Part shown: positions 11,755 through 53,600 of the stretch, one piece after another
How the letters are laid out: the number at the start of each line of letters is the position of its first letter
Position numbering within the stretch: position 1 is the stretch's first letter
Origin: Terriglobales bacterium
GTDB lineage: Bacteria; Acidobacteriota; Terriglobia; Terriglobales; Acidobacteriaceae
Reading direction: 5' to 3'
Assembly (NCBI GenBank): GCA_036271375.1
Contig: DATBAT010000258.1
Span: 14,813-78,812 of the forward strand
Length of the DNA stretch: 64,000 bases
Translations under genes and position numbers: made by a program
Notes under the pieces: model-generated
What the model saw: the letters and a program-made list of their open reading frames with translations, nothing else
Told to the model about the DNA's origin: nothing
Databases searched by the model: none

Positions 11755-12630
11755 CTATCCGTTTTCCAGCATCTTGATGGCTTCCACCAAACTCTTGCGC
11801 ATTCTGTTGAAGGAGTTGGCGAGCCCCGCGATTTCGTCTTTGCCTGATACCTGGAATTCGGGCGCGGTCATATTTCCCAAGCTGACTTCGTTGGCAATCC
11901 CGGAAACATGCGTCACTGGCCGAATCACCAGGAGCGCAAGCATTCCGTTTAGCGCCACAAAAATAAGCAGGAAGACTCCGGCGAGTGAGGCCATGAAGCC
12001 GCGGAAGGCGGTACGGGCGCGCTCGATCGGCAACTGCATGGGAGCGGAAATAATCTGCGCGGTGAGAATGTCGCCTACCTTCCATCCAAAGCCATTATCG
12101 CTACCGTATTTTTCAATCAGTGTTCGGGGCGCATTCTCAGCGGTATCGTGACAGTCGAGGCATTTGGGGTCTTTGATCTTCAGTGGGCGGGCAATGTAGA
12201 GCACTCTGCCGTTGGGAGTATCGCGCTCATTGATCAGTTCAGTTTTGTCTGGCGATTGCCTGAAGTAGCGGACGATGTCAGCCTCCCAATCGGTCGCGCG
12301 ATTGACCGGATTGGTCGGGTTCAGGGTCGCTTCCTTGTAGTAATAATCTGGAAATTTCTTGCGCAGCTGACCGAAGTATTCGTTGGCGGAATATGCCGGG
12401 ACCGATTGTGGCAAGAAGGCGTACTTCATCTGGGTCTTCAACAGCGGATTGATTTGCGTGCTGGTATAGCTGCGCACCGCCAGCGCCGCCTCCATCATGA
12501 TGCGCGCATTCTCGAGAATTTCCTGTTCGGCGTTCCGCTGAAGCAACCGATTCGAAATGTATCCCACCGCTCCGAAGCCGATGACAAAAATCAGGAGTAG
12601 AACGAGGTTGAACTTCACCATTAGTTTCAT
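11755..12630 (-). CDS. Membrane-anchored DUF3365 (c-type haem, CxxCH) sensor domain protein with C-terminal HAMP and no output domain
   Basis: Start set to ATG 12630 (MKLMVKFNLVLLLIFVIGFG...), which lies 5 nt after the upstream stop. DUF3365-like body with 'PKCLDCHDTAENAP'. Second TM plus HAMP ('IRPVTHVSGIANEVSLGNM...DEIAGLANSFNRMRKSL'), then a stop. Confidence 0.7.
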   Translation of the reverse strand: MKLMVKFNLVLLLIFVIGFGAVGYISNRLLQRNAEQEILENARIMMEAALAVRSYTSTQINPLLKTQMKYAFLPQSVPAYSANEYFGQLRKKFPDYYYKEATLNPTNPVNRATDWEADIVRYFRQSPDKTELINERDTPNGRVLYIARPLKIKDPKCLDCHDTAENAPRTLIEKYGSDNGFGWKVGDILTAQIISAPMQLPIERARTAFRGFMASLAGVFLLIFVALNGMLALLVIRPVTHVSGIANEVSLGNMTAPEFQVSGKDEIAGLANSFNRMRKSLVEAIKMLENG

Positions 12631-12635
12631 GTGTT

Positions 12636-13499
12636 TTATCTCCCGCGGGGTGCAGTGGATTCGGCCGTGTCTGGTTTGTACTTCTCTGGATGAAGAATCG
12701 GGTCCCACTCTGGATGACTGCTCATGTGGGCATCGATCGCCCGGCGAAATTCTGGATCGTTGAGTCTGGAGCGAAATCGCTCGACGAAGCCGCGACGCCA
12801 CGCGACACCAATTTTCAGCCAAGGCTCGACGTCCGCATAGTTCACTTCGCGATCGACTTTGGGCTCGACCGCCTTGGCGGCGAAGCGCGCCAGACGCGAG
12901 GGTAGAGTGTCGCGGAACGGGACAGGCATCGCCTCTAGGAACGCCGCATCGGGACGAGCCGCCGGGACGACGTTCTTTCCCGCCCGCCGGGCGAAGAACT
13001 GCCCCTGCTTGGCGGGGAGCGGCGACGTTTTTCCACCCGCGGAATTTACCTGGCTTACCGTCCCTGCGCCGGATTCGAAGTAGGCCTCCGAGCTTTCCGG
13101 CGTGGAATGCAGAAGGACCGTTCCTCCCTTGCTGGCAGCGGCCAGTCGAGGACTGGCGTACAAGCAGGGGGCCGTACAGGCGCTGGCTTCACCTTTCAGC
13201 CATCCCGTGAGGATTACCAGTTCGCCTTCCTGCGAGCCGCGTCCCAGGATCAGCAGGCGCGTGCTGCTGCCGAGGGCGATGATCTTTCCATCGTTCAATT
13301 CAAGTTGAGCGAAGCCTTTGTCGGCAGTTTCGAGTATGTCGCCCGTTCGGAGGCGCATGCCCTCGGGAGCTTGCAAGATCGTTGTGCCGCGGATAAGGCG
13401 CACAGGCGCATCTTTTAGCGTCAGAGTACCGATGGCTTGCGCTGCCGCGAGGAGTGGCAGTAACGGCAGCAGTCCAACGAAAATGCGTGCTAGCTTCAT
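12636..13499 (-). CDS. Secreted FecR-domain protein
   Basis: Start taken at ATG 13499 (MKLARIFVGLLPLLPLLAAAQA signal); the ORF track start is 13541. 'LKDAPVRLIRGTTILQAPEGMRLRTGDILETADKGFAQLELNDGKIIALGSSTRLLIL' matches the FecR-domain pattern. Confidence 0.65.
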   Translation of the reverse strand: MKLARIFVGLLPLLPLLAAAQAIGTLTLKDAPVRLIRGTTILQAPEGMRLRTGDILETADKGFAQLELNDGKIIALGSSTRLLILGRGSQEGELVILTGWLKGEASACTAPCLYASPRLAAASKGGTVLLHSTPESSEAYFESGAGTVSQVNSAGGKTSPLPAKQGQFFARRAGKNVVPAARPDAAFLEAMPVPFRDTLPSRLARFAAKAVEPKVDREVNYADVEPWLKIGVAWRRGFVERFRSRLNDPEFRRAIDAHMSSHPEWDPILHPEKYKPDTAESTAPRGR

Positions 13500-13951
13500 G
13501 AAATTTTTGATTGCGCGGGACCTCAGCGGAGGAAAAGGCAAAGTCCGGCGAATTCAGTGTGGCCGATACTATTAATGTGAAGTGCCAGTGTCAAGTGTAT
13601 GTACGCCGGAGAACCTTGCCTCTAGCCAGCGAAGAAGAACTGCAGAAAATTGCGCTTCAGAATTGACCTGAAAATTCACGAAACTATTCCTTGCCTTGGG
13701 GCTTCGGTCTTGGTGTACACTGCCGTTGCCGAACAGGGTCCGGCACTGTTTTACGTTCAGTTTTTCTTCCCGGCTTGGGAAAAATCAGCGGTCAATCAAC
13801 TGCGTGGTTCAGTGGTAAATCCGTGGCCCGGATTTCGCCCGCGACTTCGATTTCTGCGAGTCGTGGCGTCAGGTATCGCCTTGGGGGAGGCGATAGCAGT
13901 AAATGCTGTCCTCTAGCTCCGTGATCTTAGTTCCAGCCAGGAGCCGTACCG

Positions 13952-14716
13952 ATGTCCCGGCCCAACACTGCAAGCGCGAATTTTGAGGACAGTGAACAGA
14001 CGCCTGCCCGGGCGGAAGTAGCCAGGCTCATCGAGTCACATCTCTCATACTCCCACGCAATCGCCTCGGAAGTAATTCGCAGGCTGCCGCCCGATCTCGA
14101 GAAAAAAGACATGGAAGGGTGGGCTGAGCTTGGCTTGGTCGAGGCTGCCAACGCTTTTGACCGTACGCGAGGCGTGCAATTCAAGACCTTCTCCTACTAC
14201 CGCATTAAAGGCGCGGTCTACGACGGACTGCGCAAGACGGGCTGGTATCCCAGGGGCCAGTATCAGCAGATGCGTTTCGAAATGGCCGCCAACGAATACA
14301 TGAAGGACGCGGCCGGGGAATCGGCGCCACCTTCCTCTGCGGATGCCCAGTTACGAGACTTAAAAGACCTGACCGGAAGCGTTGTCACCTGTTACATGCT
14401 TTCGTTGGACGCGTTACCGCAAGAGCCGGTCGACGAGGGGCAAACCTCCGCGGAAGAAACCGCAGTCCGCAATCAGGAGAAAAAGCACATTCGGTTCTCT
14501 CTCGCGCAACTGCCGGAGATGAACCGCAAAATCCTGGAGCATTGCTACTTCGAAGGCTTGACCCTGGAGGAAGCGGGCCGAAAGCTCGGCTACTCCAAGT
14601 CCTGGATGTGCCGGCTCCATGCGAAGTCTCTCGAAATGCTGCGCAAACAGTTAAACCAAATCTGGGGTAGTCCGGCTTCACCTTCGCCAGCAACCATTTC
14701 TGGAATTCTCCGATAA
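13952..14716 (+). CDS. FliA/WhiG-like (group 3, sigma-28-type) RNA polymerase sigma factor
   Basis: Region 2 'VQFKTFSYYRIKGAVYDGLRKTGW' parallels FliA 'F.TYA..RIRGAMLDELR..DW'. Region 4 HTH 'LPEMNRKILEHCYFEGLTLEEAGRKLGYSKSWMCRLHAKSLEMLRKQL'. It sits directly upstream of the T3SS genes. Confidence 0.8.
   Translation: MSRPNTASANFEDSEQTPARAEVARLIESHLSYSHAIASEVIRRLPPDLEKKDMEGWAELGLVEAANAFDRTRGVQFKTFSYYRIKGAVYDGLRKTGWYPRGQYQQMRFEMAANEYMKDAAGESAPPSSADAQLRDLKDLTGSVVTCYMLSLDALPQEPVDEGQTSAEETAVRNQEKKHIRFSLAQLPEMNRKILEHCYFEGLTLEEAGRKLGYSKSWMCRLHAKSLEMLRKQLNQIWGSPASPSPATISGILR
14689..14716 (+). promoter_or_regulatory. Candidate sigma-28-type promoter P(sctI): AGCAAC-N16-CGATAA
   Basis: AGCAAC at 14689-14694 and CGATAA at 14711-14716 (context TCCGATAATTTG, identical to the site at 29917-29928). 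It lies in the last codons of the sigma gene, just upstream of the sctI-like gene. Confidence 0.5.
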
Positions 14717-14717
14717 T

Positions 14718-15263
14718 TTGGATGTCATGGTAGACCCAACAATTAATAGCGTCCGTGGCAAGGGAATTTCACCCGTAGGCGAACAGGACCAGACCAGCCC
14801 GGCAAAAACCCAGGAATCGAAGTTCGATAAAGTCCGCTCGCGACTGCAGGATGAGCAGGCGGCAAAAGTCGACATTCCGCCGGAAGCCAAGCAAGTTTCC
14901 CTCCAGCAGAAAAAAGTCCTCGAGACCCAACTTTCGAAGCGTCTGGAAACCACCAAGCCAAACCAGGTTTTTGGACCCGACATGAAACGAGCAAAAGAGG
15001 GCATCACCCAGTTGTCTACTCGCGTGAATGCCCTGCCCAAGACGCCTGCGTTTGAACCCTTTCGTGACCGGCTGACGAGTATCGACAACCAATTTCAGCA
15101 GACGGGCAAGCTGGTGAATTCGATCAAGGGCACCGAGAGTCCGCAAGAGTTGATGGGCATTCAGAACAAGCTGTACCAGATGTCGGAGAACCTTGAATTA
15201 ATGAGCAAGGCGATAGAACAACTGACTTCTGGAGTGAAGTCCATTCTGCAAACTCAGGTTTAG
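14718..15263 (+). CDS. sctI: T3SS inner-rod-like protein (SctI/YscI/PrgJ-like C-terminus) with long N-terminal extension
   Basis: The C-terminal 'PQELMGIQNKLYQMSENLELMSKAIEQLTSGVKSILQTQV' resembles the SctI-family terminal helix ending in 'Q'. Located immediately before sctJ. TTG start at 14718; alternative ATG at 14727. Confidence 0.55.
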   Translation: MDVMVDPTINSVRGKGISPVGEQDQTSPAKTQESKFDKVRSRLQDEQAAKVDIPPEAKQVSLQQKKVLETQLSKRLETTKPNQVFGPDMKRAKEGITQLSTRVNALPKTPAFEPFRDRLTSIDNQFQQTGKLVNSIKGTESPQELMGIQNKLYQMSENLELMSKAIEQLTSGVKSILQTQV

Positions 15264-15290
15264 GCATACCGTTTAAGAATCGAGGATCGA

Positions 15291-16118
15291 TTGAGCTGGC
15301 AACACTTTTCGAAGCTGCTGATTGTGGCGGGCGCATTCCTGTTTTTGACCGCCTGTATGACGCATGAGTTGCAGACGGAACTTAGCGAACGCGACGCGCA
15401 GGAAATTGTCGTGTTGCTAAACGAAAACGGCATCGACGCCTCTGCCAGCAAAGCTACAGGCGAAAAAAAGGGCGAAGAGAAATGGACGGTGGCGATCCGA
15501 GGCGGCGACCAAAACCTGGCGCGCGCCTGGCGGGTGCTGCAAGAAAATGGCCTTCCGCGGCAGAAGGACAAGGGATTGGATGATGTGTTCGCGAGTTCGG
15601 GCATGATTCCGACGGCGGGGGAAGAAAAGGCGCGTCTGCTGATGGGCATCTCGGGAGAGATCAGCCGGACGTTGAAATCGGTTTCGGACGTGGTCGACGC
15701 CCATGTGTTGGTGGTGATGCCGGAATCGAATCCGTTGCTGGACAAGAGCGAGCGCATGCCGCCTACCGCCTCGGTTTTGATTAAGTACCGCGGGGCTAGC
15801 TTGCCTCTGGTAGAGGAAGACGTAAAAAAGCTGGTGGCGCGGGCGGTCGAAGGCTTGCAGCCGGAAAATGTCGTAGTGGTTTATAAGAAAATCGAGCCGA
15901 AGCAGACCATGGATCGCAGCTTGATTCCCATGTTGGGGAACCAGGAATTCCTGCTGGCTGCCTTAGTTTTGCTGGCGATCTCCAGTCTCGGCTGTTTGGC
16001 CTTGGCGGGAAAGGCCCGCTTCCAGCGCTCGAAAATCGAAAGCCTGGAGGATCAGCTTCAGGCGGCGACGCGCAAGCCGCAGCTTGAAACTCCGGTCAAG
16101 ATGGCGAGGACCAGTTGA
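15291..16118 (+). CDS. sctJ: T3SS inner-membrane ring lipoprotein SctJ (YscJ/EscJ/HrcJ family)
   Basis: Lipobox 'FLFLTAC' followed by 'LQTELSERDAQEIVVLLNENGIDASASK' (hallmark YscJ N-terminus). 'VVDAHVLVVMPE...ASVLIKY' and a C-terminal TM (FLLAALVLLAISSLGCLALAG). TTG start with GAGGA 5 nt upstream. Confidence 0.9.
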   Translation: MSWQHFSKLLIVAGAFLFLTACMTHELQTELSERDAQEIVVLLNENGIDASASKATGEKKGEEKWTVAIRGGDQNLARAWRVLQENGLPRQKDKGLDDVFASSGMIPTAGEEKARLLMGISGEISRTLKSVSDVVDAHVLVVMPESNPLLDKSERMPPTASVLIKYRGASLPLVEEDVKKLVARAVEGLQPENVVVVYKKIEPKQTMDRSLIPMLGNQEFLLAALVLLAISSLGCLALAGKARFQRSKIESLEDQLQAATRKPQLETPVKMARTS

Positions 16119-16402
16119 ACCTGGAAGTATTTTGCTATCTTGGGCTGCTAAAGTTTCCTGAAAAGTTGCAGCCCATGATGGCTCTTTTGGACGGTCCGCT
16201 GAAGACGCAGGCAACAGCTCTTTTGCAGGAACTGAAAGATGTGCCCAGACCTGAACTGCAGCGGCGATGGGCCAGGTTGCGCGATGAAGAGTACATCGCG
16301 ACGCGTGGGCAAATCGAACAGCAGATCAAAGTTAGACTCGACGATATGCCGCCGTCGATAAGAGTCTGGTGTACGTCCTGGTTAGCAGACCAACATGAGT
16401 GA
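16115..16402 (+). CDS. Small hypothetical protein in the sctK position
   Basis: 95-codon ORF overlapping both neighbours (sctJ stop, sctL start). No family recognised. Its position between sctJ and sctL is where sctK sits in Ysc-type loci. Confidence 0.4.
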   Translation: MNLEVFCYLGLLKFPEKLQPMMALLDGPLKTQATALLQELKDVPRPELQRRWARLRDEEYIATRGQIEQQIKVRLDDMPPSIRVWCTSWLADQHE

Positions 16403-17027
16403 AAAAATCCTCAAAGCCGATGGCCTTCCGGAAAGGATGGCTTTTTCGTCTCCCAAGATTTTGAAGCGGGAGGCTTACGAAGCCACGCAGGACGCCAAGG
16501 ACGTAGTCACCCAGGCACAGGAAAAGGCAAAGGATCTGCTCGAAAGCGCCGAGCGTCAACGGGACGCGATTCTGGAGACTTCCCGGCAGGAAGGTCGCGC
16601 GCAAGGTCTCGCCGAGTGGAACAACATTCTGGCGCAGGCTGCCCGACGTTCGGAAGAGCTAACAAAGAATTGGGAAGAAACCATGCTTCAACTCTCGGTG
16701 CGCGTTGCAGAGAAAATTATCGGAGAGCAACTCAAGCTGCACCCGGACACGATCGTTGCCATTGTCAGGGAGGCTCTCACCACAACCCGGGCAGGTCGAA
16801 GGCTGGTGATCCAGGTAAACGATCGCGAGGCTGACATCGTGCGGTCGCAAGTCGATCGCCTCAAAGGCGCATTGGGCCCCAGCAGCGAGATTGAGGTCGT
16901 GTCATCCACCACCGTGCCCACCGGCGGATGCGTAATCGAAAGCGAACTGGGCATCATCGACGCGCGTCTTGAAACGCAACTGAAGTGCCTCGAAGACGTC
17001 CTGCTGCGCCGCACTTCTTCCAACTAA
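16395..17027 (+). CDS. sctL: T3SS stator protein SctL (YscL/HrpE/FliH family)
   Basis: Charged coiled-coil N-half. The C-half 'VAEKIIGEQLKLHPDTIVAIVREAL...RRLVIQVNDREADIV...GGCVIESELGIIDARLETQLKCLEDVL' is typical of FliH/SctL. Confidence 0.85.
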   Translation: MSEKILKADGLPERMAFSSPKILKREAYEATQDAKDVVTQAQEKAKDLLESAERQRDAILETSRQEGRAQGLAEWNNILAQAARRSEELTKNWEETMLQLSVRVAEKIIGEQLKLHPDTIVAIVREALTTTRAGRRLVIQVNDREADIVRSQVDRLKGALGPSSEIEVVSSTTVPTGGCVIESELGIIDARLETQLKCLEDVLLRRTSSN

Positions 17028-17028
17028 C

Positions 17029-18366
17029 ATGCCGAACAAGGTCACCGATATTCGCGGCTACCTCGACCGGATTGAACAGGCTTCTCCGGTGCAGGTTCGC
17101 GGGCGGGTCAAGGAAGTTGTGGGTCTCGTGGTGAAAGCTGTAGTCCCCGAAGCATGGATCGGCCAGTTGTGCCTGATCAAGAATCCACGATCCTCTGTTC
17201 CGGTAAAAGCTGAGGTGGTCGGCTTCCGCGACGGCGATGTTCTGCTCATGCCTTTGGGAGAACTGGTGAACGTGGGTCCGCACAGCGAAGTCATCCCCAC
17301 GGGAAATTGTCTGACCGTCAAGGTTGGCGACAATTTGCTGGGCCGCGTGCTGAATGGATTAGGCGAGCCCATGGATGCAGACACCAAGGGACCTCTGAAC
17401 TGCTCCGAAGAGTTCCCGGTTCTTGGTTATCCTCCCGATCCCCTCAAGCGCCAGCGAGTTACCAGGCCCATTTCTCTGGGAGTTCGCGCCATCGACGCTG
17501 TTCTCACGGCGGGAGAGGGCCAGCGCATTGGATTGTTTGCGGCTGCCGGCGGTGGCAAAAGCACTCTGCTTGGAATGATCGCGCGAAACACCGAGGCTGA
17601 CGTCAATGTGATCACGCTGGTTGGCGAACGTGGCCGCGAAGTGCGCGATTTCATCGAGCAGGATCTCGGACCCGAAGGCGTCAAGCGCTCTGTGATTGTG
17701 TGCGCGACCTCGAACGAGTCGTCCCTGGTGCGCCTGAAAGCTGCCTATGTCGGCACCGCCATCGCCGAATATTTCCGCAACAAGGGCCTCAAAGTGATGT
17801 TGATGATGGATTCGGTCACTCGCTTTGCCCGAGCGCAGCGCGAGATCGGCCTGGCTTGCGGAGAGCCTCCAGCCCGCGCAGGATACACGCCTTCGGTATT
17901 CGCCGAACTGCCCAAACTCCTGGAGAGGTCGGGAAACTCCGACAAGGGTTCGATTACCGCCATTTACACCGTGCTGGTCGCGGGCGATGACATGAACGAA
18001 CCGGTGGCCGACGAAGTCCGATCGATTCTCGATGGTCACATCATCCTGTCGCGGGAGCTGGCCGCGCGCAATCATTATCCCGCGATCAACATTCTGGAAA
18101 GCGCCAGCCGTGTGATGAGCTCCGTCACTGACAAATCGCATCGGGTTTCCGCGGGGGATTTGCGCGACCGGATGGCCACCTATGCCAAGAATGAAGACCT
18201 AATTCTTCTGGGAGCTTACAAGGGCGGTACGGACAAGCGCGTCGACGACGCCATCGCGAAAATGCCTGAGATCAATGCATTCCTGAAGCAGGCGACGGAC
18301 GAAAAATCGGATTTTGCCGGGGCAGTCGACAACTTGAAAAAGATGTTTCCGGCGAATGTGTCATGA
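17029..18366 (+). CDS. sctN: T3SS ATPase SctN (YscN/HrcN/FliI family)
   Basis: Walker A 'GLFAAAGGGKSTLLGMI' and Walker B 'KVMLMMDSVTRFARAQREIGLA'. 'ITAIYTVLVAGDDMNEPVADEVRSILDGHIILSRELA' is conserved in the family. Confidence 0.95.
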   Translation: MPNKVTDIRGYLDRIEQASPVQVRGRVKEVVGLVVKAVVPEAWIGQLCLIKNPRSSVPVKAEVVGFRDGDVLLMPLGELVNVGPHSEVIPTGNCLTVKVGDNLLGRVLNGLGEPMDADTKGPLNCSEEFPVLGYPPDPLKRQRVTRPISLGVRAIDAVLTAGEGQRIGLFAAAGGGKSTLLGMIARNTEADVNVITLVGERGREVRDFIEQDLGPEGVKRSVIVCATSNESSLVRLKAAYVGTAIAEYFRNKGLKVMLMMDSVTRFARAQREIGLACGEPPARAGYTPSVFAELPKLLERSGNSDKGSITAIYTVLVAGDDMNEPVADEVRSILDGHIILSRELAARNHYPAINILESASRVMSSVTDKSHRVSAGDLRDRMATYAKNEDLILLGAYKGGTDKRVDDAIAKMPEINAFLKQATDEKSDFAGAVDNLKKMFPANVS

Positions 18367-18860
18367 CCCAGTTCTCCTACCGGCTGCGACCGTTGCTGGA
18401 GCAGAAGGAGCAGATCAGAAAAGATTGCGAAAACGACAAGCTGCGGCGCGACCGAGAGCTGGAGGCGCAAGAGGCCAGGCTGCTTGAACTACAGAAGCAG
18501 CAAAAAGATCTGGAAGAAAAGCGCGAAAAATTGCGCCGCGAGCTTTTCGCCACCACCCAACAGGGCCCGCCAACGGCGCACGATGTGGCCGACCGCCGAG
18601 CCTACGTAAAAGTCGTGGAACAACAGATTGAAGACGCGAAGAGCGACATTTTTGCGCAACGGCAAGTCATCGAAGATTGCAAGGCGCAGGTAGAAGAGGC
18701 AAAACGGCGAGTGGAAGAGGCCAGGCGGGAAGTTGAAGTTCTGGAAAAGCACCGGGCCAAACAGGAAGAGCGTTTCCGCCGAATGTTGCAAGCAAAAGAG
18801 GACCTGGAACTAGACGAAGTCGGTAACGTTCTGTACTCAACCAGAAGGTACCAGACATGA
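18363..18860 (+). CDS. sctO: T3SS stalk protein SctO (YscO/FliJ-like coiled coil)
   Basis: 165-aa E/K/R/Q-rich coiled-coil protein. It overlaps sctN by 4 nt and sctP by 4 nt, which is the canonical position after sctN. Confidence 0.65.
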   Translation: MTQFSYRLRPLLEQKEQIRKDCENDKLRRDRELEAQEARLLELQKQQKDLEEKREKLRRELFATTQQGPPTAHDVADRRAYVKVVEQQIEDAKSDIFAQRQVIEDCKAQVEEAKRRVEEARREVEVLEKHRAKQEERFRRMLQAKEDLELDEVGNVLYSTRRYQT

Positions 18861-19486
18861 AAATCACAGATTCGCAACCGCCTGTGTCCGACGCTAATTC
18901 TCCGGCTGACGATGCTGATTCGGCCAAGAAGTCCAAAGACGATAAGGCATCCCCGTTTTCCCAATTGCTGTCGAAGAAGAAGGGCAATAACAACGGTGAC
19001 GAGTCTCCCAGTAAAGGCGCTCCGTCGCGGGAAGCCGTGTTCGACCCCGCCGCTGCCGGCTTAATACCGGGTCAAATGCCGAAAACCGAGTTGCCAATCA
19101 AGACAGCGCAGGTTGAAGGCAAGCAGCCAGTGACGCTGCCGGTGGAGCTTCAACAACTGGTGCGCGAAATCACGGTCGGCGTAAACGCCGCGGGCCGGCA
19201 GGAAGTTCATATCGAGATGAACTCCAACGTGTTGAAGGGGCTGCACATTCAGGTGGAAAGAAAAGACGGAGCCATTGCGATCCAGTTTCAGAGTACTTCC
19301 GACCAGGTGACCAATATTTTGCAGAGAAACGTGGCCGCATTGTCGCAGGCGTTTACCGATAAAGGCATGAACGAGCCGGTGATTCGCGTCAACGGGCCGA
19401 GTGAAGCTGGCGAGTCCGGAGAATTCAAAAGTCAATCGCAATTCGGCGGCCGCGGCCAACGCGGCGGCCAACGCGGGGGTCGATAG
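18857..19486 (+). CDS. sctP: SctP/FliK-like length-control (T3S4 / Flg_hook-type C-domain) protein
   Basis: Disordered N-half. The C-domain 'QEVHIEMNSNVLKGLHIQVERKDGAIAIQFQSTSDQVTNILQRNVAALSQAFTDKGM' follows the FliK/YscP C-terminal pattern. GR-rich tail. Confidence 0.65.
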   Translation: MKITDSQPPVSDANSPADDADSAKKSKDDKASPFSQLLSKKKGNNNGDESPSKGAPSREAVFDPAAAGLIPGQMPKTELPIKTAQVEGKQPVTLPVELQQLVREITVGVNAAGRQEVHIEMNSNVLKGLHIQVERKDGAIAIQFQSTSDQVTNILQRNVAALSQAFTDKGMNEPVIRVNGPSEAGESGEFKSQSQFGGRGQRGGQRGGR

Positions 19487-19516
19487 CCGCACCCGGAATT
19501 TGCGGCGCGATCCCAT

Positions 19517-26585: not shown

Positions 26586-28724
26586 ATGATTGAAAAAATC
26601 CAGACGCAGCTGCTTGATCTCAAAAAAGAGATTCAGGGCGGCAATCTCACCGGCGTTCTAACCCGGTTTGCGGATCTGCTCCTGGTTGGACTCGTTGCGG
26701 TCATGATCGGACTGATGATCGTGCCGCTGCCGACCTTTCTTCTCGACATATTTCTAACCATAAATATTACGGCGGCAGTGACCATCCTGATGGTCTCGAT
26801 CTACATATCGAGCCCAACCCAGATTGGTTCATTCCCCACCTTACTTCTCCTCACTACGCTCTACCGCTTGTCCCTGGATATTTCCGCGACCCGATTAATT
26901 CTGCTCAAGGCCGATGCCGGCGAAGTGATCCGGGCCTTTGGCATGTTTGTGGTCAGCGGCAATTTTGTAGTCGGCGCCGTCATTTTCCTGATCATCACTC
27001 TGGTCCAGTTCATTGTGATCACGAAGGGCGCTGAGCGCGTTGCGGAGGTCTCCGCCCGCTTCACTCTCGACGCCATGCCCGGCAAGCAGATGAGTATCGA
27101 CGCCGATCTGCGGGCGGGCATCATCGATTTCCAAACCGCGCGCTCCAGACGCGAGGGGTTGGCTCGCGAAAGCCAGTTCTATGGCGCGATGGATGGCGCC
27201 ATGAAGTTTGTGAAGGGTGATGCCATCGCTGGAATTGTCATCACCGCCATCAATATCGTCGGCGGATTGATCATTGGCGTTGCCATGAACAATATGAGCG
27301 TGATGGAGGCAGTGCAGACTTACTCCATCCTGACCATCGGCAACGGTCTGGTATCGCAGATTCCGGCTCTGCTGATTTCGATCTCGGCCGGCATGGTAGT
27401 CACCCGCGTCGCCTCGGAAACTCCTGATTCAAATCTTGGCAAGGATGTCGCCGGGCAGATCCTGGGCCAGCCGAAAGCAATTGCAGTAGCCTCAGGCTTG
27501 CTGACGATCATGGCGATTATCCCGGGCCTACCCAAAATTCCGTTCTTTATTCTGGCTTCATTGACCGGTTCGTTGGCTTATGGGCTTTTCCGCGCACAAA
27601 GAATGCGATTGGAAGCGAGCCAACAGAGTCAGCAAGACGTGGTCGCCGCGAAAGTGCAAGACCCGCAGATGTCGCTCACCGTCCCCCTGGTTTTGCAAGC
27701 CGGGGAAGGTCTGACCCCGTTGGTCGACATTGAAACCGAAGGCGGTAAGAAATTTTACGAGCAACTTCTTGGAGTGAGAAACGGTCTCTACTACGAACTC
27801 GGGGTAATTTTCCCTTCGCTTCAGGTCAAGGGCAACTCTCCTGGCGATCCCGGCGGCTACACCATTTGGGCCAACGAGGTGCCCGTGGTGAACGGCCTGA
27901 TTCGCATGGACGCCGTGATGGTGAACGACTCGGTCTCCGGCATTTCGATTTACGGACTAAAGGGCGAGGAGACCACCAACCCAGCGACGGGGAAACCTGC
28001 GGCGTGGATTCCGCGTGATCAAGCGGCGCGAGCCAAAGAAATCGGACTGACGGTCTGGGACAGCCAGGAGATTCTTCTTTTGCATTTGGCGCACTACCTG
28101 AAAAAGAACGCGCGAGAGTTTATTGGAATTCAAGAAGTGCAGGTGATGGTTTCTGCGCTCAAGCAGCACTACCCAACATTGGTGGAAGAGACTGTGCCAA
28201 AGCCAGTGTCGCTGCAAACCCTCACTGAGATTTTGCGGAAACTGGTCGAAGAAGAAGTATCCATACGCGATCTCAAAGCAATTTTCCAGACGCTATGCGA
28301 ATGGGGCCGCGCTGAGCACGACCCACTGGCTTTGACGGAGCAGGTGCGCGCGGGGCTGAAGAGGAAAATTTGCTACCGGCTTTCCGAAGGCCGCCCGCTG
28401 ATGTTCGTGTATCAGTTGGATCCTGAAATCGAGGAGATGTTTCGCAATTCCATACGGCAAAGCGCCAGCGGCGCCTATCTGGCAATGGAACCGGCAATGA
28501 GTCAACAAGTTTTGGAAGCCGCGCGAGCCCATCTCGGCAATCTTCCTGCGAGCGCGCAGCGGCCGGTGATCGTTACCGATGGGGAGATTCGGCGGTTCGT
28601 GAAAAAGCTTCTGGATTTCGCAATTCCCGATGTCACGGTTTTGAGTTACGACCAGATTACGCCGCAAATTAATTTGCAGCCCCTGGGCGTAATCGCTCCA
28701 GTGAGAACGCAGCTTGCCAGTTAG
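26586..28724 (+). CDS. sctV: T3SS export-gate protein SctV (FlhA/YscV/InvA family)
   Basis: 712 aa. FHIPEP signature 'RVAEVSARFTLDAMPGKQMSIDADLRAG', polytopic N-domain plus a large cytoplasmic domain. Confidence 0.95.
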   Translation: MIEKIQTQLLDLKKEIQGGNLTGVLTRFADLLLVGLVAVMIGLMIVPLPTFLLDIFLTINITAAVTILMVSIYISSPTQIGSFPTLLLLTTLYRLSLDISATRLILLKADAGEVIRAFGMFVVSGNFVVGAVIFLIITLVQFIVITKGAERVAEVSARFTLDAMPGKQMSIDADLRAGIIDFQTARSRREGLARESQFYGAMDGAMKFVKGDAIAGIVITAINIVGGLIIGVAMNNMSVMEAVQTYSILTIGNGLVSQIPALLISISAGMVVTRVASETPDSNLGKDVAGQILGQPKAIAVASGLLTIMAIIPGLPKIPFFILASLTGSLAYGLFRAQRMRLEASQQSQQDVVAAKVQDPQMSLTVPLVLQAGEGLTPLVDIETEGGKKFYEQLLGVRNGLYYELGVIFPSLQVKGNSPGDPGGYTIWANEVPVVNGLIRMDAVMVNDSVSGISIYGLKGEETTNPATGKPAAWIPRDQAARAKEIGLTVWDSQEILLLHLAHYLKKNAREFIGIQEVQVMVSALKQHYPTLVEETVPKPVSLQTLTEILRKLVEEEVSIRDLKAIFQTLCEWGRAEHDPLALTEQVRAGLKRKICYRLSEGRPLMFVYQLDPEIEEMFRNSIRQSASGAYLAMEPAMSQQVLEAARAHLGNLPASAQRPVIVTDGEIRRFVKKLLDFAIPDVTVLSYDQITPQINLQPLGVIAPVRTQLAS

Positions 28725-29582
28725 CTACGGTTGCGTCGGAGAAGTAGTGGTCAATAGATCGCGGATAAGACTGGAAAACCGGCGCGTTTCCACGAAGCCG
28801 CAAACCTGAAGAAGCCGTTGTGAGTAGCTCTGATCGAACACGTTGGTAGCGGTAAGAGTTGCCCGATAGTTGGAGACGAGAAAACGGAGTAGTTCGCAGC
28901 CGGCAGGAATGGATTGTTCCGGCGAACGAATATCCAGTAAGGTGTGCGGCGCTTCCGGCAGAATCGCCGCATAGGCCTTGAGTTCATCGCCGGAAAAGGC
29001 ACCGAGGGTCTGGATCATGGGAACTGCATTCATCAGGAAGGCGGGCCTCTGGCTCCAGTGAAGGTGCTCTTCCGGGGGAAGTTGGATTTGAGAAAGCAGT
29101 GCTGCCTCAATGGGCCGGACTGCGAAACTCGGATCCGGATCGGGCAGGGTGGCATGGTCACACCGCATGTCCATGAGCCGGTACTGCGGATAGGCCTGAA
29201 TGAAACGGTAACGTTGCGCGGGGCGATCGCTGACGGAGACGCCGTAGAGAGTTTCGTATCCGTCGTCGCGCAACCGCTGGCAGCATGCGTCAAACAGAGG
29301 CACGGAAATGGGCCGGCTCCGAAACTGGGCCAGCGTGCCCCAGTACAACGTGTATGCAGAGCGCGTTTTTTGGTCCGTGCAGTTGAGCATCAAGGCGGCG
29401 GGTTCGCCTTCAACGTATCGGACAAGGGAATATTTGTAAGAAAAATTCCAGTATCGAGAAAAGTTCAGGAAGCCAAACATGTCGAGATGAAATTCAAGCG
29501 ATGTGCCGCGGGAGGATTCGTTCAAAAGACGGATAACGTCGGGCAGGTTTTCCAGGCCTATGGGGCGTAGTTCTTCCAGCAT
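28725..29582 (-). CDS. Hypothetical protein, possibly tandem GNAT-like acyltransferase fold
   Basis: 285-aa ORF on the opposite strand inside the T3SS locus. Its stop abuts the sctV stop with zero spacing. The weak two-lobed pattern ('EGEPAALMLN...TLYWGTLAQFRSRPISVPLFDACCQRLRDDGYETLY') is only suggestive. Confidence 0.45.
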   Translation of the reverse strand: MLEELRPIGLENLPDVIRLLNESSRGTSLEFHLDMFGFLNFSRYWNFSYKYSLVRYVEGEPAALMLNCTDQKTRSAYTLYWGTLAQFRSRPISVPLFDACCQRLRDDGYETLYGVSVSDRPAQRYRFIQAYPQYRLMDMRCDHATLPDPDPSFAVRPIEAALLSQIQLPPEEHLHWSQRPAFLMNAVPMIQTLGAFSGDELKAYAAILPEAPHTLLDIRSPEQSIPAGCELLRFLVSNYRATLTATNVFDQSYSQRLLQVCGFVETRRFSSLIRDLLTTTSPTQP

Positions 29583-29624
29583 CGGAAACGCATCATACTA
29601 CAGCGTCTTAAGGGAGGTTTAGCC

Positions 29625-29897
29625 ATGAGGCAAGAAGCACGACAGACTAATTCGGCGGGAAGAGACGACATTGGCTGGCGTCAATTTCCGGAATTTGAAA
29701 AAATTCTAACCAATGAACCGCCAGCCCCCATTCTGAGCAAGGTGGAGAAGACATGCCGCCAGCTGAATGAGGTGATCCTGTCTGGATCGGAAACCGATAA
29801 AGCACGCGCCCAATTGGGCATGACGGCATACGGACGCTCTTTGGATCTGCTGCGCATGCTCACAGAAATGCGTGACAAATCAGCGGAGCAGAAGTAG
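29625..29897 (+). CDS. Small helical hypothetical protein (yscE-position)
   Basis: 90-aa ORF preceded by GGGAGG, directly upstream of the needle-like gene. No family recognised. Confidence 0.45.
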   Translation: MRQEARQTNSAGRDDIGWRQFPEFEKILTNEPPAPILSKVEKTCRQLNEVILSGSETDKARAQLGMTAYGRSLDLLRMLTEMRDKSAEQK

Positions 29898-29923
29898 CAA
29901 CATTGGCGGCTCACATCCGATAA
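29896..29923 (+). promoter_or_regulatory. Candidate sigma-28-type promoter P(sctF): AGCAAC-N16-CGATAA
   Basis: TAGCAAC at 29895-29901 and TCCGATAATTTG at 29917-29928. AGGAGG at 29931-29936 and ATG at 29945 follow. Confidence 0.55.
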
Positions 29924-29944
29924 TTTGAACAGGAGGCGAAACCG

Positions 29945-30292
29945 ATGTCCGAAATTAACCGCGCTTTGAGCATGGCATCCTCGCCGAATTACAGCATTGA
30001 TCAGATTTTGCAGACCACCACGCCTGCCAAGCAGCCGGGAGGATTCCGGCGAGTACTGGGCGGAATCGTTGGCGCAGTGGGCAACGTCTTCGCTCCCGGA
30101 ATCGGCGGCATGATCGGCAGCGCAATTTCCGGGAACACCGGCATCAACCAGACTGGCTTGATGAATGACTCCATGCAGTATCTGCAACTGCAGAAACAGA
30201 TGAACATGGAGCAGCAGGCTTTCGAAACCGCTTCCTCGGTGATGAAAGCTCGTCACGATGCGTCGATGGCCGCGATTCGCAATATGACCTAG
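29945..30292 (+). CDS. sctF: T3SS needle-family protein (SctF-like) with Gly-rich N-terminal extension
   Basis: The C-terminus 'MQYLQLQKQMNMEQQAFETASSVMKARHDASMAAIRNMT' parallels PrgI/MxiH '...YRNAQSNTVKVFKDIDAAIIQNFR' (S..V.K...D..AAI.(Q/R)N + 2 aa). Confidence 0.65.
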   Translation: MSEINRALSMASSPNYSIDQILQTTTPAKQPGGFRRVLGGIVGAVGNVFAPGIGGMIGSAISGNTGINQTGLMNDSMQYLQLQKQMNMEQQAFETASSVMKARHDASMAAIRNMT

Positions 30293-30320
30293 CGGGACTG
30301 AAGGTCAATGGAGGTCACAA

Positions 30321-30725
30321 ATGGCAACCAGGTGGACTATCGCTCCTTCTAAAGAAGAAGCGGAGTTTTTGTTGGAAGCGGGAATCATCTATCGCGACGC
30401 GAAGAACTTCGCCGCCGCCCGCGACGTATTCATGGGCGTGCAGACGCTATTTCCGAAGAGCGAAGTTCCCGAGGTACTGCTGGGCACCGTGTCTTTCCAG
30501 GAAGGCAAATTCGAAGAGGCCGAGCGGCACTATCAAAAGGCTCTCGAATTAAATTCGCGTAGCGCTTTCGCGCATGCCTATCTGGGCGAGGCTTCGCTGT
30601 TCCGCAAAGATAAAGAAGCAGCGCGCGTGCATCTGAAGACCGCTTTGACACTGGACCCTTTGGGAGAGTCGGGCAAGATGGCCCGAAGACTCATGGAAAT
30701 GTCCGATCAAGTGACGTTCGCGTAA
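30321..30725 (+). CDS. Small TPR protein (YscG/PscG-position needle chaperone candidate)
   Basis: 134 aa, TPR units ('AGIIYRDAKNFAAARDVFMGVQTLFPKSEVPEVLLGTVSFQEGKFEEAERHYQKALELNSRSAFAHAYLGEASL'). Immediately downstream of the needle-like gene. Confidence 0.55.
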   Translation: MATRWTIAPSKEEAEFLLEAGIIYRDAKNFAAARDVFMGVQTLFPKSEVPEVLLGTVSFQEGKFEEAERHYQKALELNSRSAFAHAYLGEASLFRKDKEAARVHLKTALTLDPLGESGKMARRLMEMSDQVTFA

Positions 30726-30740
30726 TCCGGCAGTTGAACG

Positions 30741-31103
30741 ATGGGTATTGATGACATCAAGCCGCCGGGGTTCTATGGCTCTTTTGTTCCTTCTTCAAGC
30801 GAAGCGCCAATTGAATCCAAGCGCGACAATAGTTTTTCCGAGGTCAAGGGTAAGGTGGAGTCCCCTGCCTCTGAGCCCGCGCGTCTGTCCTTGGGCGCAG
30901 CTGCCGATCTCAAGAAGACCGACCTTCAGGATCCCGCAAAGCTGGAACAGATAGTGCGCAGCTCGGCATCGGAACTTGTCGACTCGCAGAACTTGTCAGG
31001 ACCTTTGTCGGCTTCCGACAAGAAATCGCTGGTGGATTTCCTTTCGCAAGATCCAAAGTTTCGTCAACAGATTGAGTCCTACCTTCGAAAGGTCGCGGTA
31101 TAG
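30741..31103 (+). CDS. Hypothetical protein (low-complexity, possible substrate/regulator)
   Basis: 120-aa ORF in the operon, S/E/P/K-rich and apparently disordered N-half. No family recognised. Confidence 0.45.
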   Translation: MGIDDIKPPGFYGSFVPSSSEAPIESKRDNSFSEVKGKVESPASEPARLSLGAAADLKKTDLQDPAKLEQIVRSSASELVDSQNLSGPLSASDKKSLVDFLSQDPKFRQQIESYLRKVAV

Positions 31104-31106
31104 GCC

Positions 31107-31628
31107 ATGGAGATTCTGCTTTCTATTCGCTCCAAGACGGACGGCAGCGTCCGTGAACTGAAGCAAGAAATTGCCAGCGGCGTGGCTCTGGGTCGCGGCG
31201 CGGAGCACGGCATTCTGCTGGACGGGCAGGACCTCTCCCGCGAACACGTGGTGCTTACCACCGACGGCGACCGCGTTTTCGTAACCGACCTGAGCAGCAA
31301 TGGAACGTGGCTGAACGGAAAGCGGCTTACGCGATTAACCCGCAGCGCCTTTCGCGTGGGCGATTCCGTTGACATCCCTGGCTACACGCTGAGCTATCGG
31401 CTCGAAGAACCTCCACCACCGCCCGAACCTGCGAAAGCACCTGAGGCACCGGCCCCACTGCCAAGTATCGAGCGGCAGGTGGTGGTTTCACCTCCAGAGC
31501 CGATTCGTCCCGCGCCACGCGGTAATCCTGTCTTTGCTTTTATCGGATCGTTCAGTTTTGGAGAGAAGTTCTTGATTCTGGTTGGACTGGGCGGACTGTT
31601 GCTGATCTACACCTACGCGGGATTGTAG
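31107..31628 (+). CDS. FHA-domain protein with Pro-rich linker and C-terminal TM anchor (truncated SctD-like architecture)
   Basis: FHA: 'VALGRGAEHGILLDGQDLSREHVVLTTDGDRVFVTDLSSNGTWLNGKRL...VGDSVDIPGYTLSY'. Linker 'EEPPPPPEPAKAPEAPAP'. Terminal TM 'FLILVGLGGLLLIYTYAGL', then a stop. Confidence 0.8.
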   Translation: MEILLSIRSKTDGSVRELKQEIASGVALGRGAEHGILLDGQDLSREHVVLTTDGDRVFVTDLSSNGTWLNGKRLTRLTRSAFRVGDSVDIPGYTLSYRLEEPPPPPEPAKAPEAPAPLPSIERQVVVSPPEPIRPAPRGNPVFAFIGSFSFGEKFLILVGLGGLLLIYTYAGL

Positions 31629-33760
31629 GGAAAGGTTCGAACATCAAAGCCGACCAGGCGATGGTAGTAAGGCTCGATCAACTCCCAGAGCCGTTCCTGA
31701 TTTTTCCAAATCAGAAATCCTAAGAGACAGGCGACTGCCAGAATCAAGATCCAGATGATCACCGGAGTTTCTTCTCCTTTGACCTTTACTTTCTTGGCTG
31801 GTTTTGGCTCTGCCGCCACGGGCGCAGGCGCAACCGGAGCAGCGGCGGGTTTCCGCACATTAAGAATTACCGTTCGGTTGGCTCGCTGCGCAACCGGACG
31901 CAGCTTTGCCATAACCGCCTGAGGGTCGGGCGGTCTCTTCTCCGCGTTCTTCTCCATCATCTCTTCGACCAGGTCCGACATCGCCGCCGGACAAGATGGA
32001 AGTAGCATCTTTAACGGTGTGGCTCGCTTTTCCAGGTCACCGTGCCAGCGCAGCCAGTCCAGATCCGATCGCTGTTCTGGAAATGTTTTTTGAAACATCA
32101 GCTTTCCCAGCAGGATTTCGTAAAACATCATCCCCAGCGCATAGACGTGGGCAGTGGAGCTTTGCGCTCCGCCTTTGTCGGCAAAGATTTCCGGAGCGGC
32201 ATACCGTGGCGACGTCAGAATAATTCCGGAACCCGAACCTTGGTCCGAGGGCGTCGCAGAAGTGCGGATCGTCGCCTTGCCCGCACGGTCAAAAAAGACA
32301 TTTTCCGGGCTGAGAGCCGCTCCTTTGTTATTAGCTGCGTACATATCCAGCAAAGCTTGCACCGTGGCAACGAAGGGGTAAACCACTTCCTCAAGTTGCG
32401 GAGGATTGTCCTTCATGTAGCCGGCCAGGGTTTCTGGCTGCGCTAAGAATGGCAAAGAAATCTCCGGAGCAACTTTCGGCCGCGGTGCCGATGGCTTTAC
32501 ATCTGGCTTCGGAACGGGAGGAGGCGTGACGGGTTTGACCGGAACTGCCGGCGAAGACTGCCGCACCGGAGGAGCCGCAGGTGGGCCAGGTGGTTTGGCT
32601 GCGTTGGGTATTGCTGCCGGGCGGACTCCCGACGGTGGCCGGGCTGGCTGGCCTTTTTGGTTGGCAGCGCTCGGACTCTTCGACAGAAATGCCTTGCGTT
32701 CTTCCGGCTTTTGCAAACTCTCCGAGGCCAGAACGTAAAGGCGATCCAAATCTGTGGTTCGCGACGCAGCCTCCTTGATGATCACCCTGGCCATCGGTCC
32801 GACAAAGGCGGCAAGCAGGTGCTGTACGTCGCTGAGGACATCGGGATCCCACTTGAAGTCGTGCGCCACCTGGAGCGCCTCAAGTTCATGGGAAGAATTC
32901 CCCGATTTTTTGTCCCCGAACCCTTGCGGCGCGATGGCGGCAAGGGCGTTTTTCGAAACCGCAGGACTTACAGGGAATCCAAACGCCGTCTGAATCCCGC
33001 TGGAAAACGAGAACGCGGTGGGATAGCGGTCATAAACCGCTTTGGCCAGGGCCTTGGCGCAAACCGCATCGAAATTTGTGGGTACGTTGGGGTCTATTGC
33101 CGATGGCGGTTTTTCTTTTTCATGACACACGCGGTCCAGCAAACCTTGCGGGGGGCCAGCAAAAGGACTGACGCCGGTAAGCAGTTCGTAAAAGATAATA
33201 CCTGCGGAAAAAACGTCGGAGCGGCGGTCTACGGGCAGCCCTCCAAATTGCTCCGGTGACATGAATTGCGGCGTGCCGGCAGTGAACCTCGCCACCCCAA
33301 AACCCGCGATATGAAGCTTTCCGTCCTTGGTGACCACTAGGTTTGCGGGCTTGAGGTCGTGGTGCGCCACCCCTTGATCGTGGGCATAGTCAAGGGCGGC
33401 CAAAAGTTGCACCCCGAGGCTAACGGCATCCGGCAAAGGAACGTGCAAGCCCGGAGGCAAAGATATCCCGTCAACGTATTCGGTTGCGATGAAGGCAATG
33501 CCGGCATCCTCCCCGTATTCCAGAACTTTCACGATGCCCGGATGATTGAGTGCGGCGGCAGCGCGTGCTTCACTCTGAAATTCCGCAAGACCGGAGGCGC
33601 CGTCGGCCTCCAACCGGTTCTTGGTGACCGTCTTGAGGGTCACGCTGAGATTTGTGGCCGGGTCTATCCCCCTGAAAGTCTGCCAGGAATCCCCTTGGGC
33701 AAGCGTTTCGGCGATCTGAAAACGGCCGATTTTTTCGGGGTGGGGCGTCTCAGCGCACAT
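31613..33760 (-). CDS. Membrane-anchored tandem Hanks-type (pseudo)kinase
   Basis: The N-domain has kinase topology but 'HHDLKPANL' instead of HRD, 'IAGFGVAR' instead of DFG, and a degenerate Gly-loop ('LAQGDSWQTF'). A second kinase C-lobe-like region follows ('SPRYAAPEIF...YALGMMFYEILLG') without a catalytic loop. C-terminal TM 'VIIWILILAVACLLGFLIW'. Confidence 0.8.
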   Translation of the reverse strand: MCAETPHPEKIGRFQIAETLAQGDSWQTFRGIDPATNLSVTLKTVTKNRLEADGASGLAEFQSEARAAAALNHPGIVKVLEYGEDAGIAFIATEYVDGISLPPGLHVPLPDAVSLGVQLLAALDYAHDQGVAHHDLKPANLVVTKDGKLHIAGFGVARFTAGTPQFMSPEQFGGLPVDRRSDVFSAGIIFYELLTGVSPFAGPPQGLLDRVCHEKEKPPSAIDPNVPTNFDAVCAKALAKAVYDRYPTAFSFSSGIQTAFGFPVSPAVSKNALAAIAPQGFGDKKSGNSSHELEALQVAHDFKWDPDVLSDVQHLLAAFVGPMARVIIKEAASRTTDLDRLYVLASESLQKPEERKAFLSKSPSAANQKGQPARPPSGVRPAAIPNAAKPPGPPAAPPVRQSSPAVPVKPVTPPPVPKPDVKPSAPRPKVAPEISLPFLAQPETLAGYMKDNPPQLEEVVYPFVATVQALLDMYAANNKGAALSPENVFFDRAGKATIRTSATPSDQGSGSGIILTSPRYAAPEIFADKGGAQSSTAHVYALGMMFYEILLGKLMFQKTFPEQRSDLDWLRWHGDLEKRATPLKMLLPSCPAAMSDLVEEMMEKNAEKRPPDPQAVMAKLRPVAQRANRTVILNVRKPAAAPVAPAPVAAEPKPAKKVKVKGEETPVIIWILILAVACLLGFLIWKNQERLWELIEPYYHRLVGFDVRTFPYNPA

Positions 33761-46570: not shown

Positions 46571-46592
46571 TGCTTTTACCTTTGACAGATTG

Positions 46593-47438: not shown

Positions 47439-47447
47439 AAGGTTGCC

Positions 47448-53563: not shown

Positions 53564-53600
53564 AGTATGGCTTCTTGCTCTGTCCGAGTAACCGGGATGA

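Follow-up and report, generated by a model that had tools for sequence, protein, structure and literature searches.

A GCAAC-N16/17-CGATAA motif with the placement of sigma-28-type promoters, and its putative sigma factor, in a non-flagellar type III secretion locus of Acidobacteriota

The master regulators known to switch on type III secretion systems (T3SSs) include AraC-type activators, extracytoplasmic function (ECF) sigma factors and two-component systems. HrpL of Pseudomonas syringae and Erwinia, with its hrp box (GGAACC-N15/16-CCACNNA), and BtrS of Bordetella are T3SS-linked alternative sigma factors that switch on the whole cluster; both are ECF (group 4) factors with promoter sequences unrelated to those described below. 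Within the sigma-28 family, FliA, with its class III promoters (TAAA-N15-GCCGATAA), and Bacillus subtilis SigD also control a type III export machine. Two further members, chlamydial sigma-28 (RpsD) and Streptomyces WhiG, work in non-flagellated contexts and use CGATA-type -10 elements. In Chlamydia, sigma-28 serves late developmental genes, and its gene lies outside the T3SS operons; WhiG controls sporulation, held by RsiG with cyclic di-GMP. The T3SS biology of uncultured soil Acidobacteriota is essentially unexplored. Here, we analyse a 64-kb stretch of DNA (the window) from an acidobacterium of class Terriglobia, in which a non-flagellar T3SS cluster at 13.9-31.6 kb on the + strand carries a gene for a divergent sigma-28-family factor and four copies of the bipartite motif AGCAAC-N16/17-CGATAA. 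We consider it likely that these copies are promoters read by RNA polymerase with the locus-encoded factor (13952-14716). The features on which the argument turns are as follows.

13952-14716, + strand: sigma gene, 254 amino acids (aa), divergent FliA/WhiG (sigma-28) family; presumed reader of the motif
14689-14716, + strand: site P1, exact match, AGCAAC (core 14690-14694), N16, CGATAA (14711-14716)
20612-20640, + strand: site P2, exact match, AGCAAC-N17-CGATAA inside sctQ, on the codons Ser-Asn ... NNC-Asp-Lys
25201-25229, + strand: site P3, exact match, intergenic TAGCAAC-N17-CGATAA, 55 nucleotides (nt) upstream of a Gly-rich gene
29896-29923, + strand: site P4, exact match, TAGCAAC-N16-CGATAA, its -35 overlapped by the stop codon of o29625

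The arrangement is like that of HrpL and BtrS in combining a dedicated bipartite promoter with a T3SS-linked sigma factor in what would be a master-regulator logic, and unlike it in that the protein is a sigma-28-like factor that may have the three-domain architecture of group 3. With FliA and SigD it has in common the sigma family, the CGATAA element, the spacing, the residues that read the -10 and the apparent control of a type III export machine. It differs from them in the GCAAC -35, an extended -10 GC that is not conserved, Arg in place of Gln228 and a family score below the cut-off, as well as in a putative regulon that belongs to a non-flagellar T3SS and takes in early genes of the export gate and basal body besides late ones, with no FlgM-like partner detected. 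The likeness to the Chlamydia T3SS lies in a CdsG-like chaperone, FHA domains and a Ser/Thr kinase; to our knowledge, a GCAAC -35 has been reported for neither chlamydial sigma-28 nor WhiG.

An exhaustive pattern scan of both strands of the window returns four exact matches, all on the + strand and starting at 14689, 20612, 25201 and 29896. These are the copies that an initial annotation, made by eye, had picked out, and its statement that the window holds no further exact copy agrees with the scan. The gene contexts given there also hold: before the SctI-like gene and sctJ, inside sctQ, before the Gly-rich gene and before a needle-like gene. Dinucleotide-preserving shuffles put the expectation at 0.01 copies per window, and none of 100 shuffles reached four; the earlier estimate, under equal base frequencies, was about 0.015. 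Outside the two blocks the four sites share nothing, and the half-sites are unrelated to each other, forming neither a direct nor an inverted repeat. The longer string reported for two of the sites is indeed present, as the 12-mer TCCGATAATTTG at 14709 (site 1) and 29916 (site 4); its sharing is incidental, because the TTTG tail of TCCGATAATTTG is not conserved in orthologous loci. A position weight matrix (PWM) scan of the window, with the matrix built from related loci only and the window excluded, gives the four sites 25-31 bits and returns one extra strong match (40919-40946, - strand, 25.6 bits), which is taken up at the end; the rest of the 64 kb scores at most 12 bits. A structured RNA was considered and rejected, as the window has zero Rfam matches and the half-sites are not complementary.

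The motif is conserved well beyond the window. Using SctR as a probe we obtained 79 loci (one genome per species), including approximately 25 syntenic Acidobacteriota T3SS clusters with 58-74% identical SctR. In essentially all close loci (approximately 20) the core GCAAC-N16/17-CGATAA stands at the same four positions. Against an expectation of 0.34, the 25 sigma-bearing loci (500 kb) contain 94 core copies, and 88 of these run in the direction of the T3SS genes. A further 10 occur in the remaining 54 loci, T3SS or flagellar (857 kb), and eight of these are in fragments of the same acidobacterial family. As a non-circular check, alignments were anchored on the stop codon of the upstream gene and not on the motif. 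The spacer and intergenic DNA then vary freely, and the invariant parts are TAGCAAC, CGATAA(n)T, the ribosome-binding site and the ATG, with CGATAA invariant at orthologous positions. In the P3 intergenic region, conservation over 20 loci is confined to TAGCAACTT, CGATAA(C)T, a TG, the ribosome-binding site and the start ATG; in the P4 region the parts that stay invariant over 18 loci are TAGCAAC and CGATAA, together with the ribosome-binding site and ATG, and no others. Of 16 close loci, all keep site P1 in place, and in them the stop codon forms part of the -10.

Across 105 sites the consensus is (A/C)GCAAC-N16/17-CGATAA-n-T, the leading base being A in 73, C in 26 and G in 6, and the spacer N16 in 69 and N17 in 36. 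The altered -35 proposed earlier as AGCAAC is hence upheld as such, but was over-specified by one base, given that the conserved core is GCAAC. Some lineages keep only nCAAC, with the -35 drifting to ACAAC, TCAAC or GAAAC and the spacer to N18. Loci with a sigma factor 41-52% identical retain the motif, partly relocated to positions before sctU, after sctO, before extra Gly-rich paralogues and divergently before kinase genes. As far as sequence comparison can tell, such relocation is the behaviour of regulon promoters and not of a local sequence relic. Two loci are anomalous: L015 is without the segment from the sigma gene to sctL upstream of sctN, though its contig continues, and the L013 sigma factor loses frame within region 4. 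Both anomalies may be rearrangements or metagenome assembly errors.

The placement of the motif is that of a promoter. It is strictly directional and co-oriented with genes, and an open reading frame (ORF) starts within 150 nt at 101 of the 105 sites across loci, mostly at 0-60 nt; P1 to P4 of the window stand at 10, 22, 55 and 21 nt. Site P1 coincides with the last 28 nt of the sigma gene (the last nine codons plus the stop), so that the TAA of its -10 is the sigma stop codon, and the -10 ends 10 nt before the sctI ATG (14727). P2 ends 22 nt before an internal SctQ start codon, and P4 ends 21 nt before the start of the needle-like gene, which has AGGAGG at 29931-29936 and its ATG at 29945. 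No sigma-70-like promoters were predicted on the + strand between 13.4 and 31.8 kb.

The sequence of the motif fits a sigma-28 promoter in one half and departs from it in the other. CGATAA is the core of the sigma-28 -10 element. In the fliC promoter of Pseudomonas aeruginosa, used for the sigma-28 open-complex structure, TCTAAAG occupies -36 to -30 and GCCGATAA -15 to -8 (PMC12784957). The distance from the start of the -35 to CGATAA is 21-22 nt here versus 21 nt in P. aeruginosa fliC, where 21 corresponds to GCAAC plus N16. The initial annotation had taken CGATAA as a sigma-28-type -10 with equivalent spacing, and the fliC offset of 21 nt bears this out. The -35 is GCAAC here versus TAAA(G) in sigma-28 promoters, and only the central AA is common to both. 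By the P. aeruginosa fliC numbering, transcripts would start approximately 8 nt after CGATAA, near 14724, 20648, 25237 and 29931. From these predicted +1 sites the sctI mRNA would be nearly leaderless, and SctQ-C, the product expected from the internal SctQ start, and the needle-like gene would have leaders of 14-15 nt that begin at the ribosome-binding site.

By every measure the protein presumed to read the motif is nearest to FliA and WhiG, though divergent from the canonical members. In its 254 aa Pfam recognises Sigma70 regions 2 and 4, and NCBIfam scores it at 111.3 bits for FliA_WhiG (TIGR02479), 96 for WhiG, 91 for FliA and 54 for SigBFG. Its best sequence matches in the PDB are FliA and WhiG (E = 1e-19). 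For an AlphaFold2 (AF2) model with a mean predicted local distance difference test (pLDDT) score of 71.5, the top Foldseek matches are SigD, sigma-28 and WhiG; helices at 101-154 lie between sigma2 and sigma4 (pLDDT of approximately 60-70), and the alignments to sigma-28 structures are full length (approximately 230-260 columns) with TM-scores of only approximately 0.3.

The DNA-contacting residues follow the same division as the motif. In P. aeruginosa FliA, D66, Y76 and R97 contact the -10 and extended -10, and S224 and Q228 act in region 4.2, where Q228 is base-specific at -36/-35 (PMC12784957). The -10 readers are kept in all 25 orthologues, D66 as Asp, Y76 as Phe or Tyr (Phe in the window) and R97 as Lys or Arg. 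S224 is also kept, and Q228 is replaced by Arg in all 24 genome-locus orthologues. The recognition helix reads SKSWMCRLH in the window and SKSW-x-[CS]-R-[LIVM]-H throughout approximately 100 homologues. A kept -10 reader together with an altered -35 reader matches a motif with a canonical -10 and a non-canonical -35.

Sigma gene and motif also travel together. A metagenome scan seeded with an alignment of divergent sigma members added 80 loci (GC 35-68%), nearly all of which have the sigma gene beside sctI/sctJ and other T3SS genes, and most of the metagenomic homologues long enough to test carry the motif directly after the sigma gene. At the protein level the C-terminal 'A-T-F' of the sigma factor is the translation of GCAACnTTT, and the tail 'A-T-F...R-stop' is conserved; this tail looks like a by-product of the DNA motif (GCAACnTTT...CGATAA). 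The sigma gene and its putative first target promoter are physically fused in close loci, and shorter sigma orthologues (L018-L020, L027) are without the C-terminal tail.

Together, conservation at orthologous positions, selection on synonymous sites (below), the short distances to start codons, the joint occurrence of motif and sigma gene and the altered -35 helix support the earlier proposal that the four sites are regulon promoters of the FliA-like factor of the locus, the assignment of motif to sigma factor being based on co-occurrence and residue logic. Several points weigh against this. The TIGR02479 score of 111.3 bits is below the cut-off of 189.6, and Pfam calls no region 3. Conservation does not extend to the 'GC' of the extended -10, despite the retention of the basic residue that reads it; the base adjoining CGATAA is C in 43, T in 37, A in 13 and G in 12 sites, and the one before it C in 37, T in 30, A in 19 and G in 19. 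An almost leaderless sctI mRNA from P1 would be unusual. Two distant homologous loci with 35% GC (L087, L088) have T3SS genes with no recognisable motif or obvious variant. All related sequences come from uncultured metagenome-assembled genomes, and a test for covariation between sigma factor and -35 is without power, Arg being invariant at the Q228 position in approximately 100 homologues.

The strongest alternative is that the sites are sigma-28-type promoters read by another sigma factor, for example a chromosomal flagellar FliA, and that the locus factor has different targets. It draws on the identity of CGATAA with the canonical core, on the canonical spacing and on the scope of the inspection, which was confined to the window and the related loci. 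However, the -35 is GCAAC and not TAAA, differing at precisely the bases contacted by FliA Q228, and the local factor has Arg at this position in every homologue. Motif and sigma gene co-occur tightly over approximately 100 loci, the sigma stop codon is built into P1, and no scanned ORF of the 64-kb window matched a flagellum-specific family. We therefore regard a foreign reader as improbable.

Somewhat less probable still is a bipartite operator of a non-sigma regulator, activator or repressor, in place of a promoter. Motifs of two blocks at a fixed spacing would also suit known activator boxes of T3SSs, among them the PIP box, the tts box and ExsA sites. Yet the gap between motif and start codon is just 10-22 nt at three of the four sites, too short to fit a further promoter behind an activator box. 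The strict directionality, the unrelated halves and the identity of one half with a known -10 element also speak against an operator, and Pfam and NCBIfam scans found no other conserved DNA-binding regulator gene in the locus.

Site 2 invites its own objection, namely that it is conserved only for the SctQ residues Ser-Asn...Asp-Lys and that the match to the motif is a by-product. These residues (S, N, D, K) are invariant in SctQ orthologues. Nonetheless, among 28 unique orthologues, in which the last 140 codons offer 40 conserved degenerate codon columns, synonymous variation occurs in 37 columns and is zero only in the AGC, AAC and GAT of the motif. Ser is always AGC (one of six codons), Asn always AAC and Asp always GAT, versus 20 GAC and 7 GAT for Asp elsewhere in sctQ, and the codon before the motif Asp has C as its last base throughout, whether it encodes V, I, L or F. 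With the motif codons invariant, protein constraint alone cannot explain site 2. In addition, distant loci are without the internal sctQ site and have the motif before sctU or after sctO instead. This explanation is very improbable. An apparent in-frame stop in sctQ of L013 and L024 was not reproduced with cleaner extraction. Chance, or relics of a recent local duplication, could be suspected from the small copy number in a single window, but 0.01 copies are expected, nothing is common to the sites beyond the two blocks and the motif is kept in dozens of divergent loci, which makes this explanation negligible.

If P2 is a promoter for the sigma-28-family factor, as we favour, it is placed to serve a second product of sctQ.

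20648-20926, + strand: predicted SctQ-C unit, with ribosome-binding site GAGAGGA (20648-20654), in-frame GTG at 20663 (codon 383) and a second in-frame ATG at 20693

The predicted product has 87 aa and is essentially the SpoA/FliN C-terminal domain (FliMN_C covers SctQ residues 398-466). Of the 28 orthologues, 21 have GTG and 7 have TTG in the internal start column, and the purine-rich run before it is kept at the nucleotide level though the encoded residues differ (E-R-S versus E-G-G). P2 would thus yield SctQ-C. In Yersinia, Salmonella, Shigella and Xanthomonas it is well known that SctQ-C is made from internal translation starts, and such starts are documented in other T3SSs (PMC8553256, PMC4295842). 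The locus shares with the systems of YscQ, SpaO/SsaQ, Spa33 and HrcQ an internal start that is in frame, has a ribosome-binding site of its own and is placed shortly before the SpoA domain. The differences are a conserved promoter-like site inside the coding sequence, approximately 22 nt upstream of the internal start, and an N-terminal FHA domain in SctQ. The SctQ papers searched do not contain the phrase 'internal promoter', and a dedicated intragenic promoter is not mentioned in them. A promoter at this place could allow SctQ-C and the export-gate genes behind it to be transcribed separately, which suggests that the SctQ:SctQ-C ratio is settable at the level of transcription. The sites in the last codons of the sigma gene and in the sctQ codons are also clean cases of dual-coding DNA under measurable selection.

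These elements can be assembled into a provisional mechanism. The sigma gene would be turned on by another promoter, since the motif is absent upstream of it: autoregulation was considered and rejected on an alignment of the 260 nt upstream from 17 loci, in which only the ribosome-binding site and the ATG are conserved, and the same 260 nt in the 17 loci hold no convincing sigma-54 or sigma-70 signature. As activators of the sigma factor one could imagine the conserved kinases, the FHA proteins and the upstream HAMP-domain protein, which is speculation. The factor would then direct RNA polymerase to P1-P4, and hence to every structural operon of the machine. From P1, transcription is predicted to cover sctI, sctJ, o16115, sctL, sctN, sctO, sctP and sctQ (14727-20926). 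From P2 it would run through SctQ-C, the fliO-like gene, sctR, sctS, sctT, sctU, o24401 and TPR1 to 25194. P3 is predicted to drive the Gly-rich protein, the TPR2 chaperone and sctV (25285-28724), and P4 the needle-like protein, the CdsG/SctY-like TPR chaperone, o30741 and the FHA protein (29945-31628). In this scheme the -35 would have been re-specified from TAAA to GCAAC together with the Gln-to-Arg change in the recognition helix of region 4.2. Between the divergent genes o28725 (-) and o29625 (+) there are only 42 nt (29583-29624), and the motif precedes neither gene; at least one other promoter type must therefore operate inside the cluster.

Because the four sites precede essentially all structural operons, export gate included, the sigma factor would in effect be a master switch for the whole apparatus, as opposed to a late-gene regulator. 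The initial annotation had drawn an analogy to late flagellar gene control, and this part is not supported: the motif heads essentially all structural operons, including sctRSTU and sctV, and no FlgM-like anti-sigma factor was detected. As candidates for the latter we considered o16115, o24401, o29625, o30741 and o13650, for all of which Pfam and NCBIfam are blank, and alignment profiles of o30741 and o24401 against all PDB sequences (E <= 10) gave no FlgM or other anti-sigma factor. A divergent anti-sigma factor may be present among the locus proteins. ORF o13650 is conserved in no locus and is for this reason probably not a gene.

If true, a sigma-28-family factor with its own promoter code inside a non-flagellar T3SS would be a further regulatory solution next to the known master regulators, one that echoes flagellar ancestry. 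The change from Gln to Arg and from TAAA to GCAAC is a candidate natural example of altered -35 specificity within the sigma-28 family, and GCAAC-N16/17-CGATAA offers a signature by which the T3SS substrates and effectors of uncultured soil Acidobacteriota could be predicted. Many of the homologous proteins are already labelled 'FliA' by automated annotation, so the protein family itself is visible in databases; the T3SS linkage, the promoter code and the re-specified -35 reader appear to be undescribed so far. We found no description of a T3SS-linked FliA-like sigma factor or its promoter in Acidobacteriota or Myxococcota in the open-access literature, and an evolutionary study of non-flagellar T3SSs by Abby & Rocha (2012) contains zero occurrences of sigma or FliA (PMC3459982).

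The locus as a whole resembles, from its gene content, the early-branching, secretin-less T3SS of the Myxococcales type. The nearest non-acidobacterial relatives of its SctR are in Myxococcales genomes, and both have a FliO homologue in a non-flagellar locus and, in our window, no secretin was found (PMC12248157, PMC3459982); FliO in the non-flagellar T3SSs of Myxococcota was noted only recently (PMC12248157). The acidobacterial locus differs in its small needle/rod-like proteins and its linked sigma factor. In the Myxococcales fragments fetched, which give partial coverage, neither sigma factor nor motif was seen. Tentatively, and with more doubt than belief, the pair of sigma factor and promoter could be a flagellar regulatory inheritance in an early-branching, FliO-containing and apparently secretin-less T3SS, re-specified to be orthogonal to canonical sigma-28 and possibly still tied to secretion by an exported anti-sigma factor from among the small conserved locus proteins. 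Such an inheritance, if real, would make the locus a living intermediate in flagellum-to-injectisome regulatory evolution and a ready-made orthogonal sigma/promoter pair.

The cluster begins with the sigma gene, followed by the SctI-like gene, sctJ, a small ORF, sctL, sctN, sctO, sctP and sctQ. It continues with the FliO-like gene, sctR, sctS, sctT, sctU, two small genes (one of them TPR), the Gly-rich gene, a TPR gene and sctV. After one - strand gene come a 90-aa ORF, the 115-aa needle-like gene, the CdsG/SctY-like TPR chaperone, a 120-aa ORF and the FHA protein; the assignment of the chaperone (TPR3) comes from weak NCBIfam matches to CdsG and SctY. The FliO-family gene (20926-21360) between sctQ and sctR is a flagellar hallmark. 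Among the scanned ORFs of the window there was no match to secretin families and none to flagellum-specific families. Upstream, at 10660-11634 (-), lies a CsgG-like lipoprotein with an FlgT_C domain, which is not conserved with the locus elsewhere.

Phospho-signalling genes surround the cluster. SctQ (19517-20926) bears an N-terminal FHA domain, a separate FHA protein is encoded at 31107-31628, and two Ser/Thr kinases flank the cluster (31613-33760, -; 34025-36526); kinases adjoin the sigma gene in many related loci. The combination suggests phospho-threonine signalling into the sorting platform, as with CdsD/Pkn5 of Chlamydia or PpkA-Fha1 of the type VI secretion system. The Gly-rich proteins behind P3 and P4 (25285-25947 and 29945-30292) have C-terminal helices that resemble needle/rod proteins and are candidate secreted or polymerising substrates. 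Distant loci have two to three such paralogues, each with its own motif (L021 at 14932 and 16200; L022 at 13935 and 15283). Divergently upstream of the sigma gene are a Tll0287-like/HAMP membrane protein (11755-12822, -) and a 301-aa protein with a hydrophobic, signal-peptide-like N-terminus (12636-13541, -), both kept there in many loci. In L001 and L025 a - strand copy of the motif precedes the gene of the 301-aa protein; the window is without such a copy.

The remaining genes of the window are unrelated to the cluster; they encode an outer-membrane protein of TonB type, glycoside hydrolases and an ECF sigma/kinase pair and include a cluster for polysaccharide synthesis. The last, at 45380-60656 (-), is of exopolysaccharide/O-antigen type (glycosyltransferases, Wzy-like, Wzz, Poly_export, sugar transferase and acyltransferase) and has zero copies of the motif. 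The extra PWM match belongs to this part of the window.

40919-40947, - strand: candidate fifth site, GGCAAC-N17-CGATAA, one mismatch to the original pattern

It is antisense in the 5' region of a Ser/Thr kinase gene (40753-43668, +), just downstream of the ECF sigma gene (40182-40766, +), and 0.27 one-mismatch matches are expected by chance in the window. The fetched loci do not extend to its region. The site scores like the true sites, yet no co-directional gene follows; its possible readings are an antisense promoter and a chance match. The ECF sigma gene overlaps the start of the kinase gene, which encodes a 971-aa Ser/Thr kinase with PD40 repeats.

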